NCBI GenBank assembly: GCA_035996815.1
Contig: DASYJF010000145.1
Span: forward strand, 24,345-88,344
Direction of reading: 5' to 3'
Length of the DNA stretch: 64,000 nucleotides
From: Thermoanaerobaculia bacterium
GTDB taxonomy: Bacteria > Acidobacteriota > Thermoanaerobaculia > Gp7-AA8
The notes below the pieces were generated by a model. It saw nothing but the letters and a program-made list of their open reading frames with translations, did not search any database and was not told the DNA's origin. Each line of letters begins with the position of its first letter. The stretch's first letter is position 1. A program made the translations under genes and the position numbers. Positions 19,574 to 56,060 of the stretch are shown in pieces.

Positions 19574-22201
19574 CTAGTGAATCGTGTCGTCGTCAGGCGT
19601 TTCGGAATCGGTCGATTCGGCGTCGTCCGCGGGGATCTCGTCTTCGCCGTCGTCCTTGTCCACCAGTTTCACCGCAGCGACGACCAGATCGTTCTCGTCG
19701 ATGTTGATGACGCGAACTCCCTGCGTGCTGCGGCCGATGGAGCGGATGTCAGCGACGTTCGTGCGGATGATCATCCCCTGCTCGGTGATGAGCAGGACCT
19801 GGTCGTCTTCGAAGACGTACGAGATGCCCGCGACCTTGCCGTTTTTCTCGGTCGTCTTGATGTTGGTGACGCCGATGCCGCCGCGCGACTGCAGGCGATA
19901 CGCGGAAACCGGCGTGCGTTTGCCGAAGCCTTTTTCGGTGACGGTGAGGACCTGGCCGCGCTCATCGGAGGCGACGATCTCAACATCGTCTGATTCCGAA
20001 TCGTTCTCGACGATCTCCGGCTCTTCACCCTTGGCAGGCGGCTCGGGCACCGGCTCGCCCGAGGCAGGGAGCACGTCCATCTCGACGACAGAATCGCCTT
20101 CGCGGAGCGAGATGCCTTTCACGCCGGCGGCGCCGCGACCCATCGGACGGACGCCGTTTTCGTTGAAACGGATGGCCATGCCGTCGTGCGTGCCGATGAA
20201 GATCTCGTCGTCACCCTGCGAAAGGCGGACGGCGTAGAGATCGTCGCCTTCGTTGATATCGATGGCGATGATGCCGGTGGCGCGGACGTTCGAGAACGCC
20301 GTGAGCTCCGTCTTCTTGATCTTGCCGGCGCGCGTGACCATGACCACGTACTTCGCGTCGTTGAAATTGCGGATGGTGAGCAGCGCGCGAACGCTTTCAT
20401 TCTGTTCGACAGTCAACAAGTTGACGATCGCTTTGCCGCGCGCATTCGACGCGACCTCGGGGATCTGATGCACTTTGATCCAGTACAGCCGGCCGCGGTC
20501 GGTGAAGACGAGCACGTACGAGTGCGCGCTGGCGACGAAGAGGTGCTCGACGATGTCCTCTTCCTTCGTCTGCATGCCGATGCGGCCTTTGCCGCCGCGG
20601 CGCTGCGCGCGGTACAGCGACAGCGGCGAGCGCTTGATGTAGCCGCCACGCGACACGGTGATGACCATGTCTTCGTCGGCGATCATGTCTTCGATCGTGA
20701 TGTCGCTGGCCTGCGGGACGATCTCGGTGCGCCGCACGTCGCCGTACGCTTCTTTGATCTCGCGCAATTCGGCGCTGATGATGCCGAGGACGAGCGACTC
20801 CGATCCGAGGATCTCGCGAAGGCGGCGGATGGTGGCCTGAACTTCTTCGTACTCGGCGACGATCTTCTCGCGCTCGAGACCGGTGAGGCGCTGGAGGCGC
20901 ATGTCGAGAATGGCCTGCGCCTGCACGTCGCTGAACTGCCAGCGTTCGATCAACCCGCTCTTCGCTTCCTGCGGGTTGCGGCTGCCGCGGATGAGCGAGA
21001 TCAGTTCGTCCAGAACGTCGAGCGCTTTGACCAGACCTTCGAGGATGTGGGCACGCTCCTCGGCCTTGCGCAGGTCGTAGCGCGTACGGCGGACGACGAT
21101 CTCCTTGCGATGCTCGACGAAATGGTGCAGCAACGTCGGGAGGTCCATGACCTCCGGCTTGTTGTTGACGATGGCCAGGAAGATGATGCCGAACGTGGTC
21201 TGCATCTGCGTGTTGCGATACAGGTTGTTCAGCACGACCTCGGCGATTGCATCGCGCTTCAGTTCGATGACGATGCGCATTCCTTCGCGGTCGGATTCGT
21301 CGCGAAGATCGGAAATACCTTCAATGCGCTTGTCGTGAACCAGCTCGGCGATTTTCTCGAGCAGGCGCTTCTTGTTCGTCATGTACGGGATTTCCGTCAC
21401 GACGATCTGCTCGCGCTCGCTCTTTTTCTGCGTTTCGATTGCTGCCCGGGCGCGGACCTGAATGATTCCGCGGCCGGTGTTGTACGCCTCGTAAATCCCT
21501 TCCATGCCGAAAATGAAACCAGCAGTTGGGAAATCGGGGCCGGGCATCACAGCCATCAGCTCTTTCACTGACGCTTGCGGATTTTCCATGACCATGAGAC
21601 ACGCGTCGATCACCTCGCCGAGGTTGTGCGGCGGGATGTTCGTGGCCATGCCGACAGCGATACCCGAGGAGCCATTGACGAGGAGGTTCGGATACTTCGC
21701 GGGCAGTACAGCCGGCTCGCGTTCGGTACCGTCGTAGTTGGGGACGAAATCGACAGTTTCTTTGTCGATGTCGTCGCGCAACAGCTCTTCAGCGAGCCGC
21801 GTAAGGCGAATTTCCGTGTAACGCATTGCGGCCGGATTGTCGCCATCGACCGAGCCGAAGTTTCCCTGGCCGTCGACGAGCCGATAGCGCATCGAGAAAT
21901 CCTGCGCCATACGCACGATCGAGTCATAAATCGCGCTGTCGCCGTGCGGGTGGTACTTACCCATTACGTCGCCGACGATACGCGCCGACTTCTTATACGC
22001 TTTGCTCGCGGTGTTTCCTTGCTCGTACATCCCGTAAAGGATGCGGCGATGCACTGGCTTGAGGCCATCGCGGACGTCGGGCAGCGCGCGGCCAATGATG
22101 ACGGACATCGCGTAGTCGAGATACGACTTGCGCATCTCGTCTTCGATATTGACGGGATAGCGCTGCTCGTTGTGTGTTGTGTAATCGAAATCGTCGCTCA
22201 T
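19574..22201 (-). CDS. gyrA: DNA gyrase subunit A
   Basis: …[17 protein letters not shown]… (active-site Tyr region), beta-pinwheel repeats and an acidic C-tail. Confidence 0.95.
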
Positions 22202-22277: not shown

Positions 22278-24746
<2,469 letters not shown>

Positions 24747-24872: not shown

Positions 24873-25979
24873 TCACGGCTTTTCGATTGCCGCCGTAACT
24901 CTCCCGTTTTCAATCAGTAAGCGCCGGTGCGGCCCAGTCTCCAGCGTTCGCAGGAAACGCTCCTTTGCAGACGTCGCAAAAACCTGCGTTTGAGCCGGGA
25001 GTTTGACGAGCAGTTGCTCGAGGATTTCAAGATCGAGCTCGGCGTCGATGTCGTCCAGTAAAAAGAGCGCCGTCTCATCGAAACGACGCCGGAAAAGGGC
25101 CAGTTTCGCGAACTTCAAAAAGAGCACGACCATCTTCTGCTCGCCGCCGGAAAGCACCTCGGCGGCCGGCCGGCCATCGATAGAAAACGCGAGGACGTCG
25201 CGCTGCGGCCCGACCAGCGACATGCGCGCGCGCAACTCGTCGCGCCGAATGCGCGGCAGATCGTCGACGGCGTTCGGCTTGTAGTCGATCGCCAGATTTC
25301 GAATGTGATACCGATGCTCCGCGACGATTTGCGCGAACGCACCGCTCAGCGCCTCGGCATACGACGCCCGCCCGCGCTGTAGCGGCGCGGCGGCGTTCGA
25401 GAGCTCCTCATCCCAGGCATTGAGCGACGACGTGCTCCCGCTGGCCAGCAACGCGTTGCGTTGGCGCAATGCGCGGCCGTAGCGGCTGACCGCTTCGAGG
25501 TAACTCGGATCGACGCTGGCGATGCCGCGGTCGAGAAAGCGCCGCCGTTCTTCCGGCGCGCCGCGCAGGATGTCAAGCCGCGCTGACGAGTACGCGAAGA
25601 CGCTCATCGCATTCACATACGCCGGCAGCGTCACGCGCTCGCCGTTGATCAGCAGCGCGCGGCGCCGCGTCTCGCCTGTCTCCAGGCCGACGGAGAGCGT
25701 CTTGTCGACGCCGAATCGGTGCAGCACGCCAGTGACGAACACGCTCGGCGATCCGAACTGGAACACGCTGCCGATGCGCGCGGTGCGAAACGATTTCGTC
25801 GTAGCCAGAAAGTAGATCGCTTCGAGCAGGTTCGTCTTTCCCTGCCCGTTCCGACCGACCACGATGTTGACCTGATCGTGAAAGGCCACCTCTTCCGCGC
25901 CGAGGTTGCGGAAGGACTGAGTTGTGAGGTTACGGAGAATCAAATGGGATCCTGAAGAGGCTGCGAAGAAACGCTGCAA
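24873..25979 (-). CDS. recF: DNA replication and repair protein RecF (true start probably ~30 nt inside the ORF)
   Basis: Walker A GRNGQGKTNLLEAIYF, signature LSGGEQK, Walker B LLLDD. Confidence 0.85.
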   Translation of the reverse strand: MQRFFAASSGSHLILRNLTTQSFRNLGAEEVAFHDQVNIVVGRNGQGKTNLLEAIYFLATTKSFRTARIGSVFQFGSPSVFVTGVLHRFGVDKTLSVGLETGETRRRALLINGERVTLPAYVNAMSVFAYSSARLDILRGAPEERRRFLDRGIASVDPSYLEAVSRYGRALRQRNALLASGSTSSLNAWDEELSNAAAPLQRGRASYAEALSGAFAQIVAEHRYHIRNLAIDYKPNAVDDLPRIRRDELRARMSLVGPQRDVLAFSIDGRPAAEVLSGGEQKMVVLFLKFAKLALFRRRFDETALFLLDDIDAELDLEILEQLLVKLPAQTQVFATSAKERFLRTLETGPHRRLLIENGRVTAAIEKP

Positions 25980-25994: not shown

Positions 25995-26204
25995 CGCGCG
26001 AAGGCGCGCTTCACAAGCCTAGCCCCGCGCTTGGCGCGGGGAAAACGAACGTGGCCGAATTGCGTGGCCGCGGAGTCGGCCACCACGAAGTGCTCGCGTA
26101 GCGTGACGCTTTGTAGCGGGCCGCCTCCGCGGCCGCACATTGTTGGCACTCCCATACCCCGCGCTGAGCGCGGGGCTAAGATTGTCGAGCGCGCCTTCGC
26201 GCGC
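25995..26204. repeat. ~210-bp structured element: two ~47-bp inverted arms (each containing GC hairpins) around a 115-bp core, filling the dnaN–recF spacer
   Basis: 25995-26041 is approximately the reverse complement of 26157-26204. Each arm carries its own hairpin, ccccgcgc-ttgg-cgcgggg and ccccgcgc-tgag-cgcgggg. Confidence 0.55.
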
Positions 26205-26250
26205 TGGTGCACGCTGAGGCGTAGATTTTCCCGCAACCTCTGACGCCGGC

Positions 26251-27381
26251 TCACGCCGTCAAACGCATCGGCATGACGACGTACAAATACTCGTACGCCA
26301 GATCTGCGTCATTCGACGACGGTCGGCCGATGCACTGGCTGTTCTCGTCCTTCAGATCGAGGGAAACCTGCTGCGTGTCGCAGACGCTCAAAAAGTCGGT
26401 CACGTACGCCGCGTTGAGGCCGACGAAGAACGGGTTGCCGGCGTAGTCGATGGGAACTGTCTCGCGCGCGTCGCCGAGCTCCGGATTGGTTGACGACACC
26501 GTCAGTTTGCCCGGCGCGAAATCGAATCGCACCGCGCGCGTGCGCTCGTTGGCGACGAGCGAGATGCGGCGGATCGTGGCCAGCAGCCGCTCGCGGTCGA
26601 CGAGGACTTTGCGATCGTTGTCGCGAGCGATGACTTCCATGTAGTTCGGAAAGTTGACGTCGATCATGCGCGCCAGCAGTCGGCGGTCGGCAGCCTCGAA
26701 GAAAAGGTGATTCTCGGAGACGCCGAATCGGACGTTGCCGTCTTCGCCGGCTTCGAGTCGCAGGATCTCTTCCATCGCCTTGCGGGGGATGAGAATGGTC
26801 AGGTCGGCGTCTTTCGACTTGCCGTTGCTGCTTTGCGGGAAGTTGATCAGCGCCATCCGATGGCCGTCGGTGGCCACCATCTCCATCTTGGCCGGTTGAA
26901 CCTTCAGCAGCGCGCCGTTGAGCTGAAAGCGCGTCTCCTCGTGCGTGATGGCGAACTTCACCTTGGCCACCATCGTTTTCAATTCTTCGAGCGGGATGTC
27001 GTACGACTGCGTCGCGTTCACCGTCGGCAGCGTCGGGTAGTCCTCGGCGGGCAATCCCAGGAGCCGGAACTTGGCGGTGCCGGAGTCGACGAGCAGCGAG
27101 TTGTTTTCCTGAAGGGTGATGTGAACGTCTTCGTCGGGCAGCGAGCGGACGATGTCGAAAAGGCGTTTCGCTTCGATGGTGACGCCGCCGGGCGCGGTGA
27201 CGCGCGCGGCGCAGGAGCTGAGGATGGTGACGTCGAGATCCGTTGCAGCCATCTGCAGCCGTCCGTCGGCGGCGCGGAGCAGAACATTCGAAAGGATCGG
27301 AATCGTGGAGCGTTTTTCGACGACTCCCTGGCAAAGCTGCAACTCTTTCTGAAGATCAGCTTTTGCGACGGTCAGCTCCAT
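26251..27381 (-). CDS. dnaN: DNA polymerase III beta sliding clamp
   Basis: 376 aa. MELTVAKADLQKEL…ATDLDV…: three-domain clamp architecture. Confidence 0.9.
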   Translation of the reverse strand: MELTVAKADLQKELQLCQGVVEKRSTIPILSNVLLRAADGRLQMAATDLDVTILSSCAARVTAPGGVTIEAKRLFDIVRSLPDEDVHITLQENNSLLVDSGTAKFRLLGLPAEDYPTLPTVNATQSYDIPLEELKTMVAKVKFAITHEETRFQLNGALLKVQPAKMEMVATDGHRMALINFPQSSNGKSKDADLTILIPRKAMEEILRLEAGEDGNVRFGVSENHLFFEAADRRLLARMIDVNFPNYMEVIARDNDRKVLVDRERLLATIRRISLVANERTRAVRFDFAPGKLTVSSTNPELGDARETVPIDYAGNPFFVGLNAAYVTDFLSVCDTQQVSLDLKDENSQCIGRPSSNDADLAYEYLYVVMPMRLTA

Positions 27382-27429
27382 GTCTCTTCCTTCAGAACAA
27401 AAGTCTTTTTAGTTAGTCGTGGAAGCAGT

Positions 27430-27628
27430 GGATGCGTGCGGAAAAACCTGGCATCGGGCTGCAAAGGTTTCGAAAGTATAGCAGTTCCTTCCGGAGTGAA
27501 ACTGCGGGTTTCGTCGCGGAAAAGCGAAGGAGATTTCCTCCGTTTTCCGCAGTCGTCGGGCATCGCGCGAGCGGCGCCTTTTTTGTCCGCAGGATTTGGT
27601 GGGACGTTTCCGCAGGGGCTGTGGATTT
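27430..27628. promoter_or_regulatory. Putative oriC module 1: a cluster of at least 6 DnaA-box-like 9-mers (TTTTCCGCA family) in the dnaN–dnaA spacer
   Basis: tgcggaaaa 27437-45; gcggaaaag 27516-24; ttttccgca 27543-51; ttgtccgca 27583-91; gtttccgca 27606-14; tgtggattt 27620-28. Confidence 0.45.
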
Positions 27629-28935
27629 CATCGAAACTGATTCATCAGCCCTTCGAGCACGCGCGCGAACTGCGGATCGTTCTGCATCTTCTCGTCGATC
27701 TTTTCGACCGAGTACATCACCGTCGAGTGATGCTTGTTATTGAAGACGCGGCCGATCTCCGGGTACGACAGATCCGTCAGGTGCTTGCAGAGATACATGG
27801 CCACCTGGCGCGGGAAGGCGACCGTCTGCGCGTTCGACTTCGACTTCAGATTCGTGACCGTCGTTCCGTAGTGCGCGGCGACGACGCGCATGATCTCGGT
27901 CGACGTAATCGGCTTGTTTTCCTTCGACAGCAGTTCTTTCAACGCTTCCTTCGTCAGTTCGAGTGAAAGGTGCTTTTGCCCTGCCATCGAGGCGTACACG
28001 ACGATGCGGTTGAGCAGTCCTTCCAGTTCGCGAATGTTCGTGCGCACGCGCTCGGCCACGAACAGCGCCGCGTCCTGCGGTAGATCGATCGTTCTCTCAT
28101 CGGCTTTTTTGCGGAGGATAGCCACCTTGGTCTCGAGGTCCGGCGGCTGGATGTCGGCGATGAGGCCCCATTCGAATCGCGAGCGAAGGCGCTCCTCGAG
28201 CGTCGTGATTTCTTTCGGCGGAGCATCCGAGGTGAAGACGATCTGCTTCTGGGCCTCGTAGAGCGCGTTGAAGGTATGGAAGAACTCCTCCTGCGTCTGC
28301 TCTTTGCCCGCCAGGAACTGAATGTCGTCGAGAAGCAGCGCGTCCACCTTGCGATAGCGGTCGCGGAACTGCTGCATGCGGTCGTAACGGATTGAGGTAA
28401 TGAACTCCGTGACGAAGGAGTCGGCCGACATGTAGACGATTTTCGATCCGGACATACTGTCGCGAAGCTGTTGGCCGATGGCTTGGATCAGATGGGTCTT
28501 GCCCAATCCGGCGCCGCCATAGATGAAGAGCGGATTTAAGGATCTCGCTGGATTCTCCGCGATCGACTTCGACGCCGCGAAGGCCAGCTCGTTCGACTTG
28601 CCGACTACGAACGTCTCGAACCGGTAGCGCGGATTGAAAATCGAGAGGGGCAGGTCGGTCGGCGGCGGTCCGAGCGGGACGTTCATCTCGCTGGTGCCCT
28701 CGGTGTCGGCGACGAGGTGCAGGTTGAGATGATCCGTCGACATCTCGTCGAGGATGGATCGGATCTGCTGCGCGTAGTTCTGGCGGATCTCGGACACGAA
28801 CCGCTGGGAAGGGACGCTTACGTCGATCGTGTCGCCCTTCTGGGCGAGGAAACGGGTCGGAGCGAACCACGTCTCAAATTGAGTCCTGTCAATGGTTTGC
28901 TCCAGCCGGTCGAGGACTTGCTTCCAGAGATTCAT
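27628..28935 (-). CDS. dnaA: Chromosomal replication initiator DnaA (start at MNLWKQV; the upstream 88 codons of the track ORF only translate a microsatellite)
   Basis: AAA+ Walker A GGAGLGKTHL and a domain IV HTH (…VAFPRQVAMYLCKHLTDLSYPEIGRVFN…HSTV). Confidence 0.9.
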   Translation of the reverse strand: MNLWKQVLDRLEQTIDRTQFETWFAPTRFLAQKGDTIDVSVPSQRFVSEIRQNYAQQIRSILDEMSTDHLNLHLVADTEGTSEMNVPLGPPPTDLPLSIFNPRYRFETFVVGKSNELAFAASKSIAENPARSLNPLFIYGGAGLGKTHLIQAIGQQLRDSMSGSKIVYMSADSFVTEFITSIRYDRMQQFRDRYRKVDALLLDDIQFLAGKEQTQEEFFHTFNALYEAQKQIVFTSDAPPKEITTLEERLRSRFEWGLIADIQPPDLETKVAILRKKADERTIDLPQDAALFVAERVRTNIRELEGLLNRIVVYASMAGQKHLSLELTKEALKELLSKENKPITSTEIMRVVAAHYGTTVTNLKSKSNAQTVAFPRQVAMYLCKHLTDLSYPEIGRVFNNKHHSTVMYSVEKIDEKMQNDPQFARVLEGLMNQFR

Positions 28936-29130
28936 CGCGGATTTCACAGAGGGCACGGCCAAGTCCACTGACTCTAATAATCCGCAGCTTTTCAACACCT
29001 GCGGAAAATCCGGACCTGAAAAAGGGGAGGCGAAGATAGCACAAACGTAGGAGTGGGGAGTGGCATTGGGATCCTCGGGAGTCGGGAGCCGGAAGCCCGG
29101 AGATTGACGAAGGGATATGCGTTCGCCTTT

Positions 29131-29172
29131 CCGACCCCCGACCCCCGACCCCCGACCCCCGACCCCCGACCC
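29131..29172. repeat. Hexanucleotide microsatellite (CCGACC)x6 plus one imperfect unit, upstream of dnaA; G-rich on the opposite strand (GGGGGTC)n
   Basis: Read directly. Flanked by the inverted pair gtaggagtggggagtgg (29047-63) / ccactccccactccctac (29198-215). Confidence 0.85.
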
Positions 29173-29326
29173 CCGAGGCCCCGATCTCCCACTCCCCACT
29201 CCCTACACCCCACTCCCCGGAATAGCCCGCTATGACCAATGGTTCCGCCCCGTCGCTGGCTGGTTTGACGACCTTCCGACCCGCCGCTATACTCCCCGCC
29301 TTCTTTTTCAGAAGCTTAAGGAAATC

Positions 29327-29461
29327 ATGAAGCGTACATTTCAGCCGAATAACCGCCGCCGCAAGCGCACGCACGGCTTTCTGGTCCGGATGCGGACCAA
29401 AGACGGGCAGGCGGTGCTTTCACGGCGCCGCCGCAAGGGCCGCAAGCGCCTGGCGGTCTAG
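29327..29461 (+). CDS. rpmH: 50S ribosomal protein L34
   Basis: [44 protein letters not shown]. Confidence 0.9.
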
Positions 29462-29464
29462 CCT

Positions 29465-29863
29465 TTGTCAGCCGATGCCGGCGGACGTTCCGCCAGCTCC
29501 GAGGCTCTGCCGAAAGAGAAACGATTGGCCAAACGCCGCGAGTTCCTTCGCGTCTACGAAGCCGGCCGCAAACTCTTTTCCCGATACAGCGTACTGTTCT
29601 ATGCCGCGAACGACCTCCCGTATTCGCGCATCGGCATCACCGCGACAAAAAAAAGTGGCAAGGCAAATGTGCGCAACCGGCTGAAACGGTGGACCCGCGA
29701 GGTCTACCGGCGTCAGCGCGGTCCCCTCGACCTCGACAGCCGCTCGCTCGACGTCGTCGTCAACGTGAAGCCAAATGCCGTGCAGGCGTCGTTCGGCGAC
29801 TACAGCCTCGACCTGCAACGCGCGCTCAAGCGCGTCGTGACCGAGAGCGGCGCCACCCGATGA
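29465..29863 (+). CDS. rnpA: RNase P protein component
   Basis: Position directly after rpmH, basic RNR motif (KANVRNRLKR), size ~130 aa. Confidence 0.8.
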   Translation: MSADAGGRSASSEALPKEKRLAKRREFLRVYEAGRKLFSRYSVLFYAANDLPYSRIGITATKKSGKANVRNRLKRWTREVYRRQRGPLDLDSRSLDVVVNVKPNAVQASFGDYSLDLQRALKRVVTESGATR

Positions 29864-29866
29864 GCC

Positions 29867-30076
29867 ATGCGCGCCCTCGCTCTCGCCCCGCTCCGTTTCT
29901 ACAAGCGATTTCTCTCCCCGCTGCTGCCGCCGATGTGCCGCTTCGATCCCACCTGCTCGATTTACATGATGCAGGCGATCGAAAAGCACGGCACACTGCG
30001 CGGCGTCTGGCTCGGCATCCGGCGCCTGGCGCGTTGCCACCCGTTCAATCCTGGAGGTTGGGACCCCGTCCCTTGA
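29867..30076 (+). CDS. yidD: Membrane protein insertion efficiency factor YidD
   Basis: …[33 protein letters not shown]… signature. Confidence 0.85.
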
Positions 30077-30077
30077 G

Positions 30078-31745
30078 ATGGAAAAACGAATCTTTGCGGC
30101 AGTACTGATCTCGATCGGATTCCTGTGGCTGTGGGCGGCTGTGGCGCCGAAGCTCTTTCCCGATCTGATGAAAAAGCCGGTGCCGGCGGCGACTTCGACC
30201 ACGACAACTGCGACGACTGCTTCTTCGCAGCCGCCGCCAGTGACCGCGACAACAACCACAACCGCGACGCCGGCCGTCGAAGCGCCGGTTACTGCTGCTG
30301 CCGTCGCCCCGATTGCTGCGACCGCGCAGACGATCACGAAGGTCGGGTCGCCCGACTTCGTGGCGAAGTTCTCGAACCGCGGCGCCGAGCTGGTCTCGTT
30401 TCAGCTCACGCACTACAAAGCGAAGCCGAGCGACAAGAACGATCAGACGAACGTCGAGCTGGTCAAAGAGCGTGAGCCGGGTCGCACCGACTATCCGTTC
30501 GCCATCGAAGCGACCGACGCCAACTTCATGCATCGCGCGAACGCGGCGCTGTACGCCGTCCGCGAGTTCGACGAAAAGGGCACACATGTCGTCGAGTACC
30601 AATGGTCCGACGGCGCGCATGCGGTGACCAAGACCTTTCGCTTCACCGGCGAGTACCTCTTCAACTTCGCGGTGTCCGTTACGCCGCCGCTTCCGTACCG
30701 CGTCGCCATCGGTCCCGGAATCCGCACACTCGGGCCTGACGAAAAGGACAACCAGTTCATCGTCACGGGCAACGGTGTCGTGCAGCGCGACGACAGCCTG
30801 AAGAGCATCAATCGCGAGAAGGCCGACACGCTGAGCATCTTCCCGGCCGTGCAGTACGTCGGCATCCAGGACAACTACTTCCTCTCCGTCTTGCGTCCGG
30901 AGAAGTCGGCCGGCGCGATCATCCGCGCGATCGACGTCCCCGCGGTCGAGAAAAAAGAGAAACGACGCGAGCTCTACGCCGCCGTCAACGCGGCGCCGGA
31001 CGGCAACGTCTCCGGCGCGGCATTCTTCGGCCCGAAAGAGGCTAAGGTCGTCGATCGCTACGGCTTCGAAAAGACGCTGCAGCTCGGCGTCTTCGGCATC
31101 ATCGCCCGCTTCTTCCTCGCTGCTCTGCTCTGGCTGAACAAGTTCACGAAGAACTACGGCTGGGCCATCATCGTCCTGACTCTCATCATCAAACTCGTGC
31201 TCTATCCGCTGCAGCACAAGTGGCTGATCGGCATGAAGAAGATGCAGAAGCTGCAGCCGAAGCAGGAGGCGATCAAGGCCAAGTACAAGAAGGCCAGGAC
31301 CGATCCCGAGCAGAAGCAGAAGATGAACATGGAGATGATGAAGCTGTACCAGCAGGAAGGGATCAATCCTGCCGGCGGCTGTCTCCCGTTCGTGCTGCAA
31401 ATCCCGATTCTGTGGGGCTTCTACGGTCTGCTGTCGCACGCCATCGAGCTGCGCGGCGCGCCCTTCATCTTCTGGATTCACGACCTGTCGATGAAGGACC
31501 CGTACTACATCACGCCGCTGCTGATGACGGTTACGATGTTCATCCAGCAGGCCATCACGCCGTCGACGGCGGATCCGGCGCAGAAGAAGATGTTCATGAT
31601 CATGCCGCTGGTGATGGGATGGATTTTCAAGGAGTTCCCGACCGGCGTCGTGCTTTACTGGCTGATGCAGAATCTGCTGACGATCGTGCAGCAGCTCCTG
31701 ATGAACAAATTCACCGATCCCGCGGCCGCGCCGCCGGGAAAATGA
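30078..31745 (+). CDS. yidC: Membrane protein insertase YidC
   Basis: N-terminal TM, large periplasmic domain, and a conserved C-terminal 5-TM core (…GWAIIVLTLIIKLVLYPL…GCLPFVLQIPILWGFY…). Confidence 0.9.
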   Translation: MEKRIFAAVLISIGFLWLWAAVAPKLFPDLMKKPVPAATSTTTTATTASSQPPPVTATTTTTATPAVEAPVTAAAVAPIAATAQTITKVGSPDFVAKFSNRGAELVSFQLTHYKAKPSDKNDQTNVELVKEREPGRTDYPFAIEATDANFMHRANAALYAVREFDEKGTHVVEYQWSDGAHAVTKTFRFTGEYLFNFAVSVTPPLPYRVAIGPGIRTLGPDEKDNQFIVTGNGVVQRDDSLKSINREKADTLSIFPAVQYVGIQDNYFLSVLRPEKSAGAIIRAIDVPAVEKKEKRRELYAAVNAAPDGNVSGAAFFGPKEAKVVDRYGFEKTLQLGVFGIIARFFLAALLWLNKFTKNYGWAIIVLTLIIKLVLYPLQHKWLIGMKKMQKLQPKQEAIKAKYKKARTDPEQKQKMNMEMMKLYQQEGINPAGGCLPFVLQIPILWGFYGLLSHAIELRGAPFIFWIHDLSMKDPYYITPLLMTVTMFIQQAITPSTADPAQKKMFMIMPLVMGWIFKEFPTGVVLYWLMQNLLTIVQQLLMNKFTDPAAAPPGK

Positions 31746-33951: not shown

Positions 33952-33981
33952 GCGCGCGCGGGCGACTGTTCCACGTGAAAC

Positions 33982-35883
33982 ATGTTCGACGTGATTGTGA
34001 TTGGCGGAGGGCACGCCGGCGCTGAGGCTGCCCGCGTTTGCGCCCGCGGCGGCGCCCGTGTCGCGCTGCTGACGATGCTGCGCGACGCCATCGGCCGCAT
34101 GTCGTGCAACCCTGCCATCGGCGGCCTCGCCAAGGGCAACCTCGTCAAAGAGATCGACGCCCTCGGCGGTTTGATGGGGGAGGCAACCGACCGCGCAGGC
34201 ATCCAGTTCAAGGTGCTGAATCGATCGAAGGGTCCTGCCGTGCAGGGTCCGCGCGCGCAATGCGATCGCGATCTCTACGCCGACGCCGTCCAACAGATTT
34301 TGATCGATGAGCCGAACATCACCATCATCGAAGGATCCGCGACATCGCTCGTGCACGACGGCAAGTCCGTCAGCGGCGTGATGCTCAAAGACGGAACCCG
34401 CCTCGACGCGCGCGCCGTCATCGTCACCACCGGAACGTTCCTTCGCGCATTGATGCACTCCGGCGAAGTGAAAACCGTTGGCGGCCGCTTCGGCGAACCG
34501 GCGGCGGAGACGCTCTCCGACTCGCTACGCACCCTAGGCCTGAAACTCGGTCGCCTCAAGACCGGAACGCCACCTCGCGTCGACCGCACCACCGTCGATT
34601 TCTCAAAGCTCGAAGAAGCGCCAGGCGACGCCAAGCCGCGTCCGTTCTCCATCCTCACCGATGCACTGCCGCTTCCGCAGGTGCTCTGTCATCTGACCTA
34701 CACGAGCGAAATCGCGCACGAGTTGATCCGAGCCAACCTCCATCGCGCGCCGATATACTCGGGCCAGATTCACGCCACCGGTCCGCGCTACTGCCCGTCC
34801 ATCGAAGACAAGGTGGTGCGCTTCGCGGAGAAGGAGCGCCATCAGGTCTTCGTCGAGCCGGAGGGCCTGACGCATCCCTGGCTCTACATGAACGGCATCT
34901 CGACGTCGTTGCCGCCGGATGTCCAGGACGCCGTCGTCCGTTCTCTGCCCGGTTTCGAAAAAGCCGTCATCGCGCGCTACGGATATGCGGTCGAATACGA
35001 CTTCGTGAACCCCGAGCAGCTCGATCCGACGCTCCAGGTTCGCGGAGTTGACGGCCTTTTCCTCGCGGGCCAGATCAACGGCACCTCGGGATACGAAGAG
35101 GCGGCCGCGCAGGGACTCCTGGCCGGAATCAACGCGCTGCAGAAGATCCGCGGCGGCGATCCGGTCATCCTGCGTCGCGACCAGGCCTACGCCGCGGTGA
35201 TGATCGACGACCTCGTCACGCAAGGTACCGAGGAGCCGTATCGAATGTTCACCTCTCGCGCCGAGCACCGCCTGCTCCTCGGCTGCGACTCCGTTTACGA
35301 GCGGCTGTCGCCGGTCGCGGAGCGGCTGGGGATTCTCGACGATGAGCGCAAACGACGCGTCGAGCAGCGCATCGCACGCATGCAGCGGGCAAGAGCAGCG
35401 GCGGAAACCACCGTGACGCCGGACCGCGAAACGCTGGCGTGGCTGTCGGCTGCGAGCATCACATTAAATGAGAAGTCGTCGATCGCCCGGCTCATGCAGC
35501 GCGCCGATTTCGACCTCGCCGGCTTCACCGACGCGTGCGCGAACGTGCTCCCGGAGGTTGCGGAGTCGTTTCGCGTGCTCACGGAGGAAGAGTCGGATGG
35601 CGTCGTCAGTCAGCTTCGCTACGCCGGCTATATCGACCGGCAGCAGCGCGAAGCGGCGCGGCAGGCGGACGAGGAAGGCGTGCAAATCCCGGCCGACATG
35701 TCGTACGGCTTGCCGGGACTGTCGCGGGAAATGGTCGAGAAACTGAGCTTCGTCCGGCCGGTTTCACTCGGACAAGCCAGCCGCATCCCCGGCGTCACGC
35801 CCGCGGCGATCTCGATTGTGCGGATGCACCTGCGGCGCGGCGGTCGTGAAGAGTCCCGCACCTGTCATCCTGAGAGGGTGTGA
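33982..35883 (+). CDS. mnmG: tRNA uridine 5-carboxymethylaminomethyl modification enzyme MnmG (GidA)
   Basis: FDVIVIGGGHAGAEAA FAD fold, …GPRYCPSIEDK…. Confidence 0.95.
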   Translation: MFDVIVIGGGHAGAEAARVCARGGARVALLTMLRDAIGRMSCNPAIGGLAKGNLVKEIDALGGLMGEATDRAGIQFKVLNRSKGPAVQGPRAQCDRDLYADAVQQILIDEPNITIIEGSATSLVHDGKSVSGVMLKDGTRLDARAVIVTTGTFLRALMHSGEVKTVGGRFGEPAAETLSDSLRTLGLKLGRLKTGTPPRVDRTTVDFSKLEEAPGDAKPRPFSILTDALPLPQVLCHLTYTSEIAHELIRANLHRAPIYSGQIHATGPRYCPSIEDKVVRFAEKERHQVFVEPEGLTHPWLYMNGISTSLPPDVQDAVVRSLPGFEKAVIARYGYAVEYDFVNPEQLDPTLQVRGVDGLFLAGQINGTSGYEEAAAQGLLAGINALQKIRGGDPVILRRDQAYAAVMIDDLVTQGTEEPYRMFTSRAEHRLLLGCDSVYERLSPVAERLGILDDERKRRVEQRIARMQRARAAAETTVTPDRETLAWLSAASITLNEKSSIARLMQRADFDLAGFTDACANVLPEVAESFRVLTEEESDGVVSQLRYAGYIDRQQREAARQADEEGVQIPADMSYGLPGLSREMVEKLSFVRPVSLGQASRIPGVTPAAISIVRMHLRRGGREESRTCHPERV

Positions 35884-36174: not shown

Positions 36175-36741
36175 GTGAGTCGCGACTGTCGGCTGGAGAC
36201 GTACAAGCGCGAGCTTCTGCGTTGGAACGAGCGGATCAACCTCATCGGTCCGGAGGCAAAGGAAAATATCGACGCCCACATCGACGAAGCGGTCATTGCG
36301 GCGAACATCCTGAAGCCGTCCGGCAACGTGCTCGACTTCGGCAGCGGGGGAGGATTGCCGGCCATTCCGATGGCAATCGTCTCGCCCGACGCGCGGTTTC
36401 ACCTCGTCGAAGCCGACAAGAAAAAGTGGGCGTTCCTGAAACACATCGTGCGGGCGTGCGAATTGAACGCTGTGATTTACGGTGATAGATTGGCGCGCGC
36501 CGTGACGCGGTTCCCGCCTGAGCTTCGATTTTCCCTGGTTACTTCGCGCGCAGTCGGAAATCCCGAGGAATGGGTGCCGTCGCTGGTGCCATGGATGGAG
36601 CGGGGCGGGCGCGTAGCACTCTTTCAAAGCAATCCGGACGTTCCTGGGATCAACGGTTTCGCGAAAAGCGAAGTCTTTCCGCTTCCCCGGGGAACCTCGA
36701 ATTTCCTCGTCACGCTCACGTTCCACGTGGAACAACACTAG
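36175..36741 (+). CDS. rsmG: 16S rRNA (guanine527-N7)-methyltransferase RsmG (GidB)
   Basis: SAM-binding LDFGSGGGLPAIP and gid-operon context. Confidence 0.85.
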   Translation: MSRDCRLETYKRELLRWNERINLIGPEAKENIDAHIDEAVIAANILKPSGNVLDFGSGGGLPAIPMAIVSPDARFHLVEADKKKWAFLKHIVRACELNAVIYGDRLARAVTRFPPELRFSLVTSRAVGNPEEWVPSLVPWMERGGRVALFQSNPDVPGINGFAKSEVFPLPRGTSNFLVTLTFHVEQH

Positions 36742-37509
36742 ATGTCGAAAATCATCGCACTCGCGAATCAGAAGGGCGGGGTCGGCAAGACCACCACCGC
36801 CATCAACCTCGGCGCTTCTCTCGCCGCGTGCGAGCGGCGCGTGCTGCTGGTTGACCTCGATCCGCAGGCGAACGCGACTTCGGGCATTGGCGTGACCGAG
36901 GCGGATCCGTCAATGTACGACGTGCTCATCGAGAACATGCCGATCAGCGAGATCATCCGGCCGACGGAAATCCCGACGCTGTTTCTCGCGCCGTCGTCGG
37001 TTGACCTGGTCGGCGCCGAGGTCGAGCTGCGCGATGCAATCGGACGCGAGTACTACCTCAAGCGCGTGCTCGAACCGATCGCCGCCGACTACGACTACAT
37101 CCTCATCGACTCGCCGCCATCGCTCGGATTGCTCACGGTCAATGGCCTCACCGCGGCGAACTCCGTGCTCGTCCCGCTGCAGGCCGAGTACTTCGCACTC
37201 GAGGGCGTCTCGCAGCTGCTTGCGACGATCGATCGCGTCAAAAGCGCTGTGAATCCCTCGCTCGACGTCGAAGGCATCGTGCTGACGATGTACGACGAGC
37301 GGATCAATCTGGCGCGGCAGGTCGCGGAAGAAGTCCGCAACCACTTCGGCGAGAAGGTCTACAAGACCGTCATTCCGCGGAACGTCCGGCTCAGCGAAGC
37401 GCCGTCGTTCGGCAAACCGATTATTCTTTACGACATCCGCTCGCGCGGCAGCGAAGCGTACGTCAGTCTGGCCAGGGAGTTCATTCAGCGCGCGGAGAAC
37501 GTGATCTGA
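36742..37509 (+). CDS. parA: Chromosome partitioning ATPase ParA/Soj
   Basis: Deviant Walker A KGGVGKTTT. Confidence 0.9.
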   Translation: MSKIIALANQKGGVGKTTTAINLGASLAACERRVLLVDLDPQANATSGIGVTEADPSMYDVLIENMPISEIIRPTEIPTLFLAPSSVDLVGAEVELRDAIGREYYLKRVLEPIAADYDYILIDSPPSLGLLTVNGLTAANSVLVPLQAEYFALEGVSQLLATIDRVKSAVNPSLDVEGIVLTMYDERINLARQVAEEVRNHFGEKVYKTVIPRNVRLSEAPSFGKPIILYDIRSRGSEAYVSLAREFIQRAENVI

Positions 37510-38375
37510 TGATCCACAAGAAAGTGCTCGGCCGCGGTCTCGGCGCTCTCATCCCGCAACGGCAGGAGGCGCCGGTCGAGTCGCACGCGACGCAGGGGCT
37601 GGCCGAGATTCCGATCTCGCAGATTCAGCCGAATCCCTTCCAGCCGCGCAAGACGTTCAACGAAGCGTCGATCGACGAGCTGGCGCGCAGCGTCCGCGAG
37701 CACGGCATCGTGCAGCCGCTCGTCGTCACGCGCGCCGGCGACAAGTACAAGCTCATCGCCGGCGAGCGCCGCTTCCGCGCCGCGCAGAAGGCCGGCCTGA
37801 CCACGGTCCCCGTCCTCATCAAAGAGATGATGGCCGAGGGCGACGCGCTGCAGATCGCGCTCATCGAAAACATCCAGCGCGAAGACCTGAACCCGATCGA
37901 AGAGGCGATGGCGTATCACCAGCTCCACGACGATTTTCAATTGACGCAGGAGGAGATCTCACGCCGCGTCGGCAAGGAGCGCTCGACCGTCGCCAACTTC
38001 CTGCGGCTTCTCAAGCTGCCCGATCCGGTCAAGAAGCTGCTCGCGTCCGGACAGCTCTCGATGGGTCATGCACGCGCATTGCTCGCGATTGAGTCGCCGA
38101 AGAAGCAGGAGCAGCTCGCCGAACGCGTTGTCCGCAAGAACCTCAACGTCCGGCAGACGGAGATGCTCGCTTCGGAAAGCTCGCCGAAGACGGCGGAAAA
38201 GAAAGAGAAAGAGAAGGACGTCTTCACGCGCGACGCGGAAGACAAGCTTCAAAGGACTTTACGAACGAAAGTTGAAATCGACCGCAGACGCCGAGGGGGT
38301 GTGATTCACATCCGCTACGGCAGCGAAGACGAACTGATTCGCGTCGTCGATGAGCTCATGGGACGGCGACGGTAA
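37509..38375 (+). CDS. parB: Chromosome partitioning protein ParB/Spo0J
   Basis: ParB box GERRFRAA and an HTH. Confidence 0.9.
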   Translation: MIHKKVLGRGLGALIPQRQEAPVESHATQGLAEIPISQIQPNPFQPRKTFNEASIDELARSVREHGIVQPLVVTRAGDKYKLIAGERRFRAAQKAGLTTVPVLIKEMMAEGDALQIALIENIQREDLNPIEEAMAYHQLHDDFQLTQEEISRRVGKERSTVANFLRLLKLPDPVKKLLASGQLSMGHARALLAIESPKKQEQLAERVVRKNLNVRQTEMLASESSPKTAEKKEKEKDVFTRDAEDKLQRTLRTKVEIDRRRRGGVIHIRYGSEDELIRVVDELMGRRR

Positions 38376-38376
38376 T

Positions 38377-38760
38377 ATGGGAGCAGAGATGAAGAACAAG
38401 AGTGGTGAACTGAACGGCTTTCTCGATCGCGGCTCGTCGTTTCGCGGCGAGCTGGAATTCGAAGACACGATGCGCATCGACGGCCGTTTCAACGGCAAGA
38501 TCATGACGAAGAATGAGCTGATCGTCGGCGAGAGCGCGCAGATCGAGGGCGAGATCCACGCCGGCCGCATCGCCATCAGCGGCACGGTCGTCGGCAAGAT
38601 CATCGCGGCGCAGCGCGTCGAGATCCATCGCAACGGCAAGGTCTACAGCGACATCGACACGCCCGCGCTGATCATCGAGGAAGGCGCGATCTTCCAGGGC
38701 AACTGCGTGATGGGCGACAAGAAGCCGGCGCTGGTGACGAACATCGCTGCAAAGGCGTGA
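38377..38760 (+). CDS. Bactofilin
   Basis: Beta-helical repeat core (…IDGRFNGKI…GESAQIEGEIHAGRIAISGTVVGKI…VEIHRNGKVYSDI…). Start chosen to avoid overlap with parB. Confidence 0.7.
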   Translation: MGAEMKNKSGELNGFLDRGSSFRGELEFEDTMRIDGRFNGKIMTKNELIVGESAQIEGEIHAGRIAISGTVVGKIIAAQRVEIHRNGKVYSDIDTPALIIEEGAIFQGNCVMGDKKPALVTNIAAKA

Positions 38761-38799
38761 CGCTGCGGTGCGAGCATCGACTGCAGCAATATGACAAAC

Positions 38800-38967
38800 G
38801 ATTGCAGAGCTGCGATCGGTGATTACGGAGCTGCGATCGGCGATTACAGAGTTTCGATCGACGATTACAGAGTTGCGATCAACGATTACAGAGCTGTGAT
38901 CGATGATTACAGCGATGTCCAGATTTGTCGCAGAGCTGTAATGGCTGATTACAGCTACGTCTGGATG
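38800..38967. repeat. 21-bp-period tandem array A (5 good + 3 degenerate units; consensus gattacagagctgcgatcggc)
   Basis: Read directly. The array is contiguous with no unique spacers, so it is not a CRISPR. Confidence 0.8.
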
Positions 38968-55682: not shown

Positions 55683-56060
55683 ATTCAAAACACAATCTCC
55701 TTGAATCGCAGACAAATCCTCTGATTCAGTCGACAGACTCTCTGGGTCGTTAGACAGACTTTTTGGATCGTTAGACACAGTTTTTGGACCGCGAGACATA
55801 CTTTCTGGGTCGTTAGACACACTTTTTGGATAGCGAGACCCACTCTCTGGATAGCGAGACAGACTCTTTGGGTCGCTAGACAGATTGATTCGATCGGATG
55901 ACCCACTTCATGGGTCGACTGACATACTTTTGGATCGCTAACCAAACTTCCTGGGTCAGCAGACAGGCTCTTTGGGTCAATCGGCAATACGCTTGGGCCG
56001 CTCAACTCGTGGTTTGGTTCGGTAGATCAACCGTTTGATCGGTAGGCGTGCAGGATCGGC
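55683..56060. repeat. 21-bp-period degenerate tandem array B (~17 units; consensus tggatcgttagacagactttt), lower GC than its surroundings
   Basis: Read directly. The units are contiguous and degenerate, with no spacers. Confidence 0.75.

Follow-up and report, generated by a model that had tools for sequence, protein, structure and literature searches.

Judged by the layout of their sequence features, the described replication origins that come closest to the locus analysed here appear to be those of Firmicutes. In B. subtilis and C. difficile (incA/B plus incC; oriC1 plus oriC2) DnaA boxes flank dnaA within an rnpA-rpmH/dnaA/dnaN gene context, and unwinding takes place on the dnaA-dnaN side, where a tandem pair of boxes is followed by a GC spacer, CTA trios and AT-rich DNA. 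In the Bacillus model the box pair directs DnaA onto trinucleotide repeats (3'-GAT-5', with CTA opposite), next to which lies the AT-rich DNA (PMC8287927, PMC6669920, PMC7561715). The rules given for such a basal unwinding system (BUS) allow the box at most two mismatches to the species motif, with an optional weaker second box, a fixed orientation and a distance of at most 16 bp from the trios; and they demand at least three consecutive trios with A as the middle base (3'-NAN-5'; NTN on the top strand) (Richardson 2019, Pelliciari 2021).

DnaA boxes of the TTTTCCACA type are found in Cyanobacteria and Deinococcus and, as described below, in most Acidobacteriota. Actinobacterial origins, such as those of Mycobacterium and Streptomyces, occupy the dnaA-dnaN spacer, have TTGTCCACA boxes and belong to genomes of high GC content. 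DnaA also regulates its own gene, and in E. coli and B. subtilis the DnaA boxes concerned are found at the dnaA promoter or shortly past it. The box consensus for M. tuberculosis is YWRTCCACA (cited in PMC5043019), while in Thermotoga maritima, whose DnaA has the 12-mer box AAACCTACCACC, substitutions in domain IV occur together with a changed box (PMC6669920). The literature searched contains no description of an oriC from Acidobacteriota, nor experimental binding or replication data for one.

Here we describe a dnaA-dnaN spacer (27382-27627) from this phylum which we consider likely to be the chromosomal replication origin, or at least its unwinding part, with G7-variant boxes (that is, with G at box position 7) and a putative operator upstream of dnaA. 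Its sequence features mark it as a predicted DnaA-dependent origin of the standard dnaA-dnaN type, at the standard place.

Gene order and comparison set

The window, by which is meant the whole 64-kb stretch of DNA analysed, has a GC content of about 62%, and its DnaA matches with 100% identity a protein annotated from a metagenome-assembled genome of a Thermoanaerobaculia bacterium. The closest species-representative genome is also from Thermoanaerobaculia, with a DnaA that is 72% identical, which points to an uncultured member of the Acidobacteriota. Pfam assignments place gyrA (19574-22201), gyrB (22278-24746), recF (24873-25979), dnaN (26251-27381) and dnaA (27628-28935, encoding 435 aa) on the minus strand. 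On the plus strand there follow rpmH (29327-29461), then rnpA, yidD, yidC, jag, mnmE and mnmG in this order, and further along parA (36742-37509) and parB (37509-38375). The synteny gyrA-gyrB-recF-dnaN-dnaA / rpmH-rnpA-yidD-yidC-jag-mnmE-mnmG-...-parA-parB, which had been claimed in an earlier sequence-only reading of this DNA, is confirmed by these assignments. Of two parS-like sites, at 33967-82 and 36719-34, the former differs from the consensus at one position.

Over the 64 kb GC skew, whether raw, cumulative or taken at third codon positions, follows gene orientation; a coding-strand bias of C over G dominates it, and no usable replication signal emerges from a window as short as this. 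A search of positions 26000-31000 against Rfam at a relaxed threshold returned sub-threshold matches only, and so supported no RNA element: the matches were generic hairpin (miRNA) models on a repeat hairpin, and AsdA, matched within the dnaA coding sequence at 29.6 bits where the gathering score is 52.

The comparison set consisted of 160 loci encoding relatives of DnaA, to which were then added 12 close relatives with 75-95% identity in DnaA. These 12 were obtained from a protein database search together with their contigs; pattern scans of genomes and metagenomes alone gave three relatives above 65% identity. The clade as discussed here comprises 14 genomes, namely the window and 13 relatives whose DnaA is 72-95% identical, and the dnaA-dnaN spacer was aligned across 12 genomes.

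An array of DnaA boxes between dnaA and dnaN

The spacer between dnaA and dnaN is 246 bp long, and its commonest 7-mer, counted without any prior motif, is GCGGAAA, with four copies. Five 9-mers within one mismatch of TTTTCCGCA are present, where the remainder of the window predicts 0.058 (Poisson P ~5e-9), and in 5000 dinucleotide shuffles of the spacer five matches were never reached. No other 250-bp stretch of the 64 kb has more than two such matches, no other cluster of boxes is found, and every exact copy of TTTTCCGCA in the 64 kb, three in all, adjoins dnaA. The enrichment of the 9-mer over its background, on which the origin call had been made to depend, is therefore seen for TTTTCCGCA-type boxes when the spacer is set against the rest of the window. 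Two details of the sequence-only reading need correction. It had counted at least six 9-mers within two mismatches of TTATCCACA, where we count four, none of them within one mismatch; and it had described the change at box position 7 as C to G, but TTATCCACA has A at this position and the change is from A to G. A scan with the E. coli consensus gave no match within one mismatch in either of the spacers flanking dnaA, so that this consensus is the wrong yardstick for them.

Where at least three DnaA boxes in intergenic DNA beside dnaA or dnaN are asked of an oriC, this spacer has six clear boxes (a to f) and two weak ones (e' and f'). Box a, AAATCCACA (27620-27628, minus strand), shares 1 nt with the dnaA stop codon and has A at position 7 (A7) in all nine close relatives in which the box is present, its forms in the clade being AAATCCACA and ATTTCCACA. 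Box b, GTTTCCGCA (27606-27614, plus strand; TGCGGAAAC in dnaA orientation), has G7 in 12 of the 12 relatives that possess it, including L172, whose copy CTGCGCAAAA is otherwise degenerate. Position 7 of box c, TTGTCCGCA (27583-27591, plus strand; TGCGGACAA in the dnaA-orientation alignment), is G in nine genomes and A in four. Box d, TTTTCCGCA (27543-27551, plus strand), forms an inverted pair with box e, TTTTCCGCG (27515-27523, minus strand), which is conserved as TT[TC]TCCGC[AG]. Box d has TGCGGAAA without change in every one of the 12 aligned genomes, 10 of which have the full CTGCGGAAAA; a TGCGGAAAA is found there in L001 as well. Next comes the degenerate, box-like e', AAACCCGCA (27503-27511, minus strand), a putative box that lies within the conserved GAAACCCGCAG; GAAACCCGCA from this region is conserved in 10 of the 12 aligned genomes. 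Box f, TTTTCCGCA (27437-27445, minus strand), is the stronger member of the pair beside the unwinding site: it is TTTTCCGCA in WIN-L168, and its TCCGC core is present in 12 of 12 aligned genomes. The weak second box f', GCATCCACT (27427-27435, minus strand), lies 1 nt past box f and is conserved as CGCATC[CT]AC, being written CGCATCCAC in the clade order of conserved islands. Boxes b to d point in one direction and boxes e to f' in the other.

The 12-genome alignment gives the same picture as a footprint, since conservation falls on the boxes, a promoter-like 30-mer, the trios and the ribosome-binding site, and the segments between the boxes cannot be aligned. In dnaA orientation the order of the islands is a, b, c, d, e, GAAACCCGCAG, the 30-mer, f, f', CTA-like triplets, an A-rich stretch and the dnaN ribosome-binding site. 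A possible dnaA terminator, the central GGAGG-AAAT-CTCC hairpin lying between boxes d and e, was rejected, because L164 shows no compensatory changes in it; only the boxes are conserved in that segment.

The motif TTTTCCGCA departs from every published DnaA box, and in the literature searched no report links it to DnaA, so it might be supposed that the TGCGGAAA repeats are bound by some other protein. We regard this as very improbable. The position, orientation and spacing of the repeats match arrangements of DnaA boxes elsewhere, and relatives carry TTTTCCACA or TGTGGAAAA at sites where the window has the G7 forms. A binder other than DnaA was rejected on this last ground, the motif being interchangeable with the canonical TGTGGAAAA/TTTTCCACA at orthologous sites: occurrence of the G7 and A7 forms at the same sites speaks for their being read by a single protein, DnaA. 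The comparison thus supports the assignment of the spacer 9-mers as DnaA boxes.

The predicted unwinding module

Between the box pair and dnaN lies a degenerate DnaA-trio array, 5'-TAG T TAG TCG TGG AAG CAG-3' (27410-27428, plus strand). In dnaA orientation it reads CTG CTT CCA CGA CTA A CTA, followed by AAAAG, and it is overlapped by the box pair TTTTCCGCA-c-GCATCCACT. A search for a DNA-unwinding element near the boxes, which had been proposed as a check, led to a candidate after the box pair and trios, in a short AT-rich stretch of about 25-30 bp (27385-27414) immediately ahead of the start of dnaN, whose ribosome-binding site it overlaps; the segment 27390-27414 ranks third among the least stable 25-mers of the 64 kb (top 0.03%).

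Set against the BUS rules, the box pair conforms: TTTTCCGCA has no mismatches to the clade motif and is accompanied by GCATCCACT, in the orientation seen in Bacillales and in other Acidobacteriota. The trios of the window conform less well, with only two consecutive trios obeying the middle-base rule where at least three are demanded. The orthologous arrays in L161, L167, L168, L170 and L001 satisfy the trio rule, and L001, L167, L168 and L170 have the canonical CTA CTA CTA; examples of the module in relatives are CTACTACTACCACTACTAAAAAG (L001) and CTGCTTCCACTACTACTAAG (L167). The module is also found in other Acidobacteriota (L026, L051, L054 and L061; in L054 as AGATCCACA-ggcgc-CTACTACTACTAG) and in the Firmicutes loci sampled, from Bacillales and Clostridia, for example as TTATCCACAAATCCACA-gcc-CTACTACTATTACTA. 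Common to them all are the order and orientation of box pair, short GC spacer, CTA-type trios, AT-rich DNA and dnaN, in agreement with the module as published (PMC8287927, PMC7561715). By homology and position, then, the predicted unwinding module is present in the window genome, where it is weak by the formal rule.

Relative to B. subtilis and C. difficile, the window has the box TTTTCCGCA in place of TTATCCACA, its trios are degenerate, its AT-rich stretch is very short (in a genome of 62% GC), and an invariant putative promoter is found inside the spacer. It resembles Actinobacterial origins in its scarcity of AT-rich DNA and in its many closely placed boxes, which depart from the E. coli consensus; the Actinobacterial boxes, however, keep A7, and the operator-box trio described below is not known in this form upstream of dnaA in Actinobacteria.

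The putative promoter is contained in a 30-mer, GGAACTGCTATACTTTCGAAACCTTTGCAG (27459-27488, minus strand), in which the sequence TGcTATACT (27475-27483) resembles an extended -10 element directed towards dnaN. In the nine closest aligned genomes, with DnaA 77-100% identical, 29 of the 30 positions (GAACTGCTATACTTTCGAAACCTTTGCAG, GAACTG...) are identical. On either side of dnaA promoter-like elements are interspersed with the boxes, and regulation of dnaA and dnaN transcription by DnaA would likewise predict boxes there. On these grounds it could be argued that the boxes are only transcriptional operators of the two genes, and that replication starts elsewhere, as GC skew gives no local support for an origin within the 64 kb. 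The oriC does not lie beside dnaA in some bacteria, E. coli and Caulobacter among them. We nevertheless think this reading improbable. To our knowledge the combination of box pair, trio array and AT-rich DNA, here conserved as far as Firmicutes, has no role in transcription control; eight boxes exceed what an operator requires; parS sites lie nearby and the origin synteny is complete; and over roughly 30 kb to either side no second box cluster occurs. Boxes, unwinding module, nearby parS and synteny together uphold the placing of the predicted oriC inside the window.

A triple-box element upstream of dnaA

Clusters of DnaA boxes had been reported to flank dnaA on both sides, and both were found, one in the spacer 27382-27627 and the other at 28978-29008, upstream of dnaA. 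The inverted pair described there in the sequence-only reading exists (TAATCCGCA, TGCGGAAAA), but it is situated 3 nt to the right of the positions given for it, at 28978-28986 and 29000-29008, and the pair is really a trio, composed of TAATCCGCA (28978-86, plus strand), a middle box TTTTCAACA (28989-28997, plus strand) at 11-bp spacing, and TTTTCCGCA (29000-08, minus strand). The AT-richer DNA that had been placed next to it is modest, and the least stable DNA in this region (29300-29324) belongs to the promoter or leader of rpmH. A further box-like sequence, AAATCCGCG (28936-28944, minus strand), lies directly before the dnaA ATG; it is retained in the closest relatives only and is no more than a possible box.

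A putative dnaA promoter is marked by the extended -10 sequence TGcTATCTT (29033-29041, minus strand), which is conserved as TGCTA[TG]NNT in 14 of the 14 clade members. The three boxes follow 25-55 bp downstream of this -10 element, and after them comes the start codon. On the other strand a promoter-like site for rpmH, TTGACG-17-TATACT (29265-29293, plus strand), includes GAGTATAG, which is conserved in relatives.

The trio is one instance of an element TTTCCACA-NN-TGTGGAAAA-NN-TGTGGA found upstream of dnaA in the relatives and in about 40 Acidobacteriota loci; many Acidobacteriota have it as TTTCCACA-NN-TGTGGAAAA-N2-3-TGTGGAA. Its exact counterpart in the window is TTTTCCGCA-gg-TGTTGAAAA-gc-TGCGGATTA, and every intermediate form is seen in close relatives, such as TTTTCCACA-ga-TGTGGAAAA-gt-TGTGGATTA in L164 and TTTTCCGCA-gg-TGCGGAAAA-gc-TGTGGATTT in L165. 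The simplest reading is that the upstream boxes form an autoregulatory operator of dnaA, since a position in the dnaA leader just past the -10 element is a natural place for autorepression by DnaA. As in E. coli and B. subtilis, the boxes follow shortly after the (putative) dnaA promoter; the window differs from those systems in having a fixed triple-box element, with one box facing two at a spacing of 11-12 bp, which is shared by much of the phylum. Such a phylum-wide triple-box operator would appear to be new.

The alternative is that the origin is truly bipartite, like those of B. subtilis, H. pylori and C. difficile, with the upstream cluster (as oriC1) and the spacer (as oriC2) both bound by DnaA, dnaA looped out between them, and both clusters needed. 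The in-silico description of a bipartite origin, with a cluster on each side of dnaA and an unwinding element in only one of the two (PMC7561715), fits this locus, the upstream trio is strongly conserved, and the rnpA-rpmH-dnaA-dnaN context is that of Firmicutes. The upstream cluster of the window, however, amounts to three boxes in 31 bp in the dnaA leader, compared with 9-19 boxes in clostridial oriC1 (PMC7561715); it has no trio array or unwinding element; and its boxes occupy the classic position for autorepression. In addition, position 7 of the operator boxes switches freely between A and G among close relatives and that of the origin boxes does not, which suggests that the two clusters are under different constraints, the looser one on the upstream cluster. 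A functionally bipartite origin is thus possible but in our view rather unlikely. The term bipartite, which the sequence-only reading had used, is apt in the in-silico sense of two clusters split by dnaA; as a statement about function it names a possibility only, the upstream cluster being explained equally well by autoregulation.

A clade-specific G at box position 7

Most boxes around dnaA in other Acidobacteriota are of the TTTTCCACA type. The boxes of the window share with this type the T at position 3 and the TCC-CA core, and differ from it in that position 7 is G at most origin boxes of the window's clade. From this comparison the origin boxes are a clade-specific variant, TTTTCCGCA, apparently derived from the phylum's TTTTCCACA form by change of A7 to G. 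In the dnaA-dnaN spacers of the 14 clade genomes position 7 is G in 53 boxes, A in nine and T in one; among other Acidobacteriota it is G in 26 of 329 (~8%) and A in ~85% (Fisher P 7e-33, a value uncorrected for shared ancestry). The earlier suggestion of a lineage-specific DnaA box is therefore sustained, in that G7 predominates in the clade and is kept at orthologous origin sites.

The distribution of G7 within the clade is not uniform. Boxes b, d and f always have G7, box e deviates only in L162 (A) and L001 (T), and box a always has A7. In the upstream operator boxes of the 14 genomes, by contrast, position 7 is G in 12 and A in 18, A and G having been swapped several times across the same divergence. 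Fixation of G at boxes b, d and f while the operator boxes switch suggests that G is held by selection at the origin, and that A7 and G7 are probably not equivalent there.

One way to account for this is that the G7 boxes are deliberately weak sites which need ATP-DnaA or cooperativity, like the low-affinity sites of E. coli oriC, rather than the preferred targets of an altered DnaA, and that the A7 boxes (box a, and operator boxes in relatives) are strong anchors. The fixed pattern just described speaks for this account, as does the E. coli consensus TTWTNCACA, in which high affinity depends on A7 (PMC5835720); and the same DnaA helix is found alongside operators that are all A7 in L164, L167, L168 and L170-172. 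It is harder to reconcile with the fact that the box beside the unwinding site, the better-conserved one in modules of the Bacillus type, is G7 here, or with the changes that the contact residues of DnaA have undergone in this clade; and affinity cannot be read off sequence. We consider this account possible, but somewhat unlikely.

The changes in DnaA concern the recognition helix of domain IV, which in E. coli is RDHTTVLHA (residues 432-440). In the window the helix is KHHSTVMYS, which aligns to RDHTTVIHA of B. subtilis DnaA (8BTG) and is the same in 117 of the 120 closest DnaA homologues, the residues that correspond to E. coli positions 433, 435 and 439 being His, Ser and Tyr in the clade. 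The positions of DnaA that contact bases are 399, 423, 432-435 and 438-439 (PMC5043019); contact positions were taken from this list only, with no residue assigned to base 7. Comparison of the helix among Acidobacteriota by tblastn showed His for Asp433 throughout the phylum and Ser for Thr435 commonly; Tyr for His439 is, within the Acidobacteriota sample, found in this clade only. The helix change correlates with G7 boxes in the clade, as a single evolutionary event. Two unrelated lineages with Tyr439 (L070 and L076) have A7 boxes, so that the link between helix and box rests on that one event.

It is tempting to suggest that initiator and origin have co-evolved, that the helix KHHSTVMYS, with His433, Ser435 and Tyr439, reads G7, and that the fixed pattern of G7 and A7 represents sites of graded strength. 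This can be offered only tentatively, and we would sooner doubt it than rely on it. A precedent is provided by Thermotoga maritima; there the box is a changed 12-mer, whereas in the window the change is confined to a single position, A7 and G7 coexist, and a change in specificity is putative. The clade-wide change of A7 to G in the DnaA box, and its association with an altered recognition helix, appear to be new, no earlier report of such a box having been found in the literature searched.

Proposed mechanism and implications

From the sequence features, their enrichment and their conservation we infer DnaA binding, unwinding, promoter activity and autoregulation at this locus. DnaA would bind the array of six clear and two weak boxes, and ATP-DnaA would spread from the tandem pair f/f' (TTTTCCGCA-c-GCATCCACT) onto the DnaA-trio strand (plus, 27410-27428). 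As in the basal unwinding system of Bacillus, this spreading would open the AT-rich stretch 27385-27414 before dnaN. The extended -10 promoter between e' and f would direct transcription through the module into dnaN, and the three upstream boxes (28978-29008) in the dnaA leader would act as an autoregulatory operator.

For genome annotation, predictors based on the E. coli box would give this origin a poor score, there being no box within one mismatch. The clade motif TTTTCCRCA, in combination with the module of box pair, trios and AT-rich DNA, would provide a direct handle for annotating origins in metagenome-assembled genomes of Thermoanaerobaculia, and annotation of the origin aids the estimation of growth rates from read-depth ratios. 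The pattern of A7 and G7, with the changed helix, offers a small and testable case of an initiator and its origin drifting together; and if the tentative co-evolutionary reading were true, this clade would exhibit natural switching of DnaA-box specificity, with affinity graded by a single base.

A composite DnaA-box element and an altered recognition helix in Acidobacteriota

Upstream of dnaA lies a composite triple DnaA-box element, TTTCCACA-NN-TGTGGAAAA-N2-3-TGTGGAA, in which one box is opposed to the other two. The element was found in this position in about 40 of 150 loci (for example L002-L007, L012 and L085-L097), and its conservation spans several classes of Acidobacteriota; it appears to be undescribed. 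Domain IV of DnaA in the Acidobacteriota members of L002-L160 uniformly reads K-H-H-[ST]-T-V-x-H-S, while the matching segment in Firmicutes and E. coli is R-D-H-T-T-V-x-H-A; the base-contacting residue Asp433 is replaced by His throughout the Acidobacteriota sample.

A conserved 30-mer in the origin spacer

The spacer between dnaN and dnaA contains, on the minus strand at 27459-27488, the 30-mer GGAACTGCTATACTTTCGAAACCTTTGCAG. The nine genomes nearest to this one in the alignment agree at 29 of its positions, with divergence of up to 23% between their DnaA proteins. Such conservation is well beyond what a -10 element alone would need, and the 30-mer may in addition be a binding site for another origin factor.

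Candidate sites and repeats elsewhere in the window

Two parS-like palindromes were located, TGTTCCACGTGAAACA directly ahead of mnmG (33967-33982; one mismatch to the consensus) and CGTTCCACGTGGAACA directly ahead of parA (36719-36734; three mismatches), against a chance expectation for such matches of about 0.18. Following parB, a small ORF (38350-38760) looks bactofilin-like on inspection of its sequence, and downstream of it are 5.5 tandem copies of the 21-bp unit ACGATTACAGAGCTGCGATCG (38798-38912). Another array of 21-bp units, with some 7-8 copies, occupies 55732-55907 and also shows a higher-order period of 63 bp.

AsdA is an antisense RNA of dnaA mRNA. The Rfam match to it on the plus strand at 28463-28521 scores 29.6 bits, below the gathering score of 52, and falls within the conserved ATPase-coding portion of dnaA; it is most likely due to coding-sequence similarity.

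Among the relatives, a palindromic MITE-like element, CATCCTGAGCGAAGCGAAGGATCT ... AGATCCTTCGC ... GCTCAGGATGA, occurs in related copies inserted directly past the dnaA stop codon in two different genomes (L162, 2509-2630; L001, 3810-3930), the latter having a second copy upstream of dnaA (about 2210-2380).

A variable repeat hairpin between rpmH and dnaA

The promoters of rpmH and dnaA are divergent, and in the DNA that separates them tandem heptamers make up a long hairpin (29047-29216; arms GGAGTGGGGAGTGG / CCACTCCCCACTCC; z = -2.9 for the DNA fold), which includes 6.6 copies of CCCCCGA (29131-29176) and 4.4 of CCCACTC (29188-29218). Its dnaA-sense strand carries runs of at least five G, which might fold into a G-quadruplex. 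In the close relatives compared (L161, L162, L166 and L171), other repeat hairpins, differing in sequence, stand at the same place upstream of dnaA; L162, for instance, has 15 copies of GGTTGCCG, and L166 has repeats of CGCGAGAC. The site has the appearance of a hypervariable hot spot for insertions adjoining the origin.
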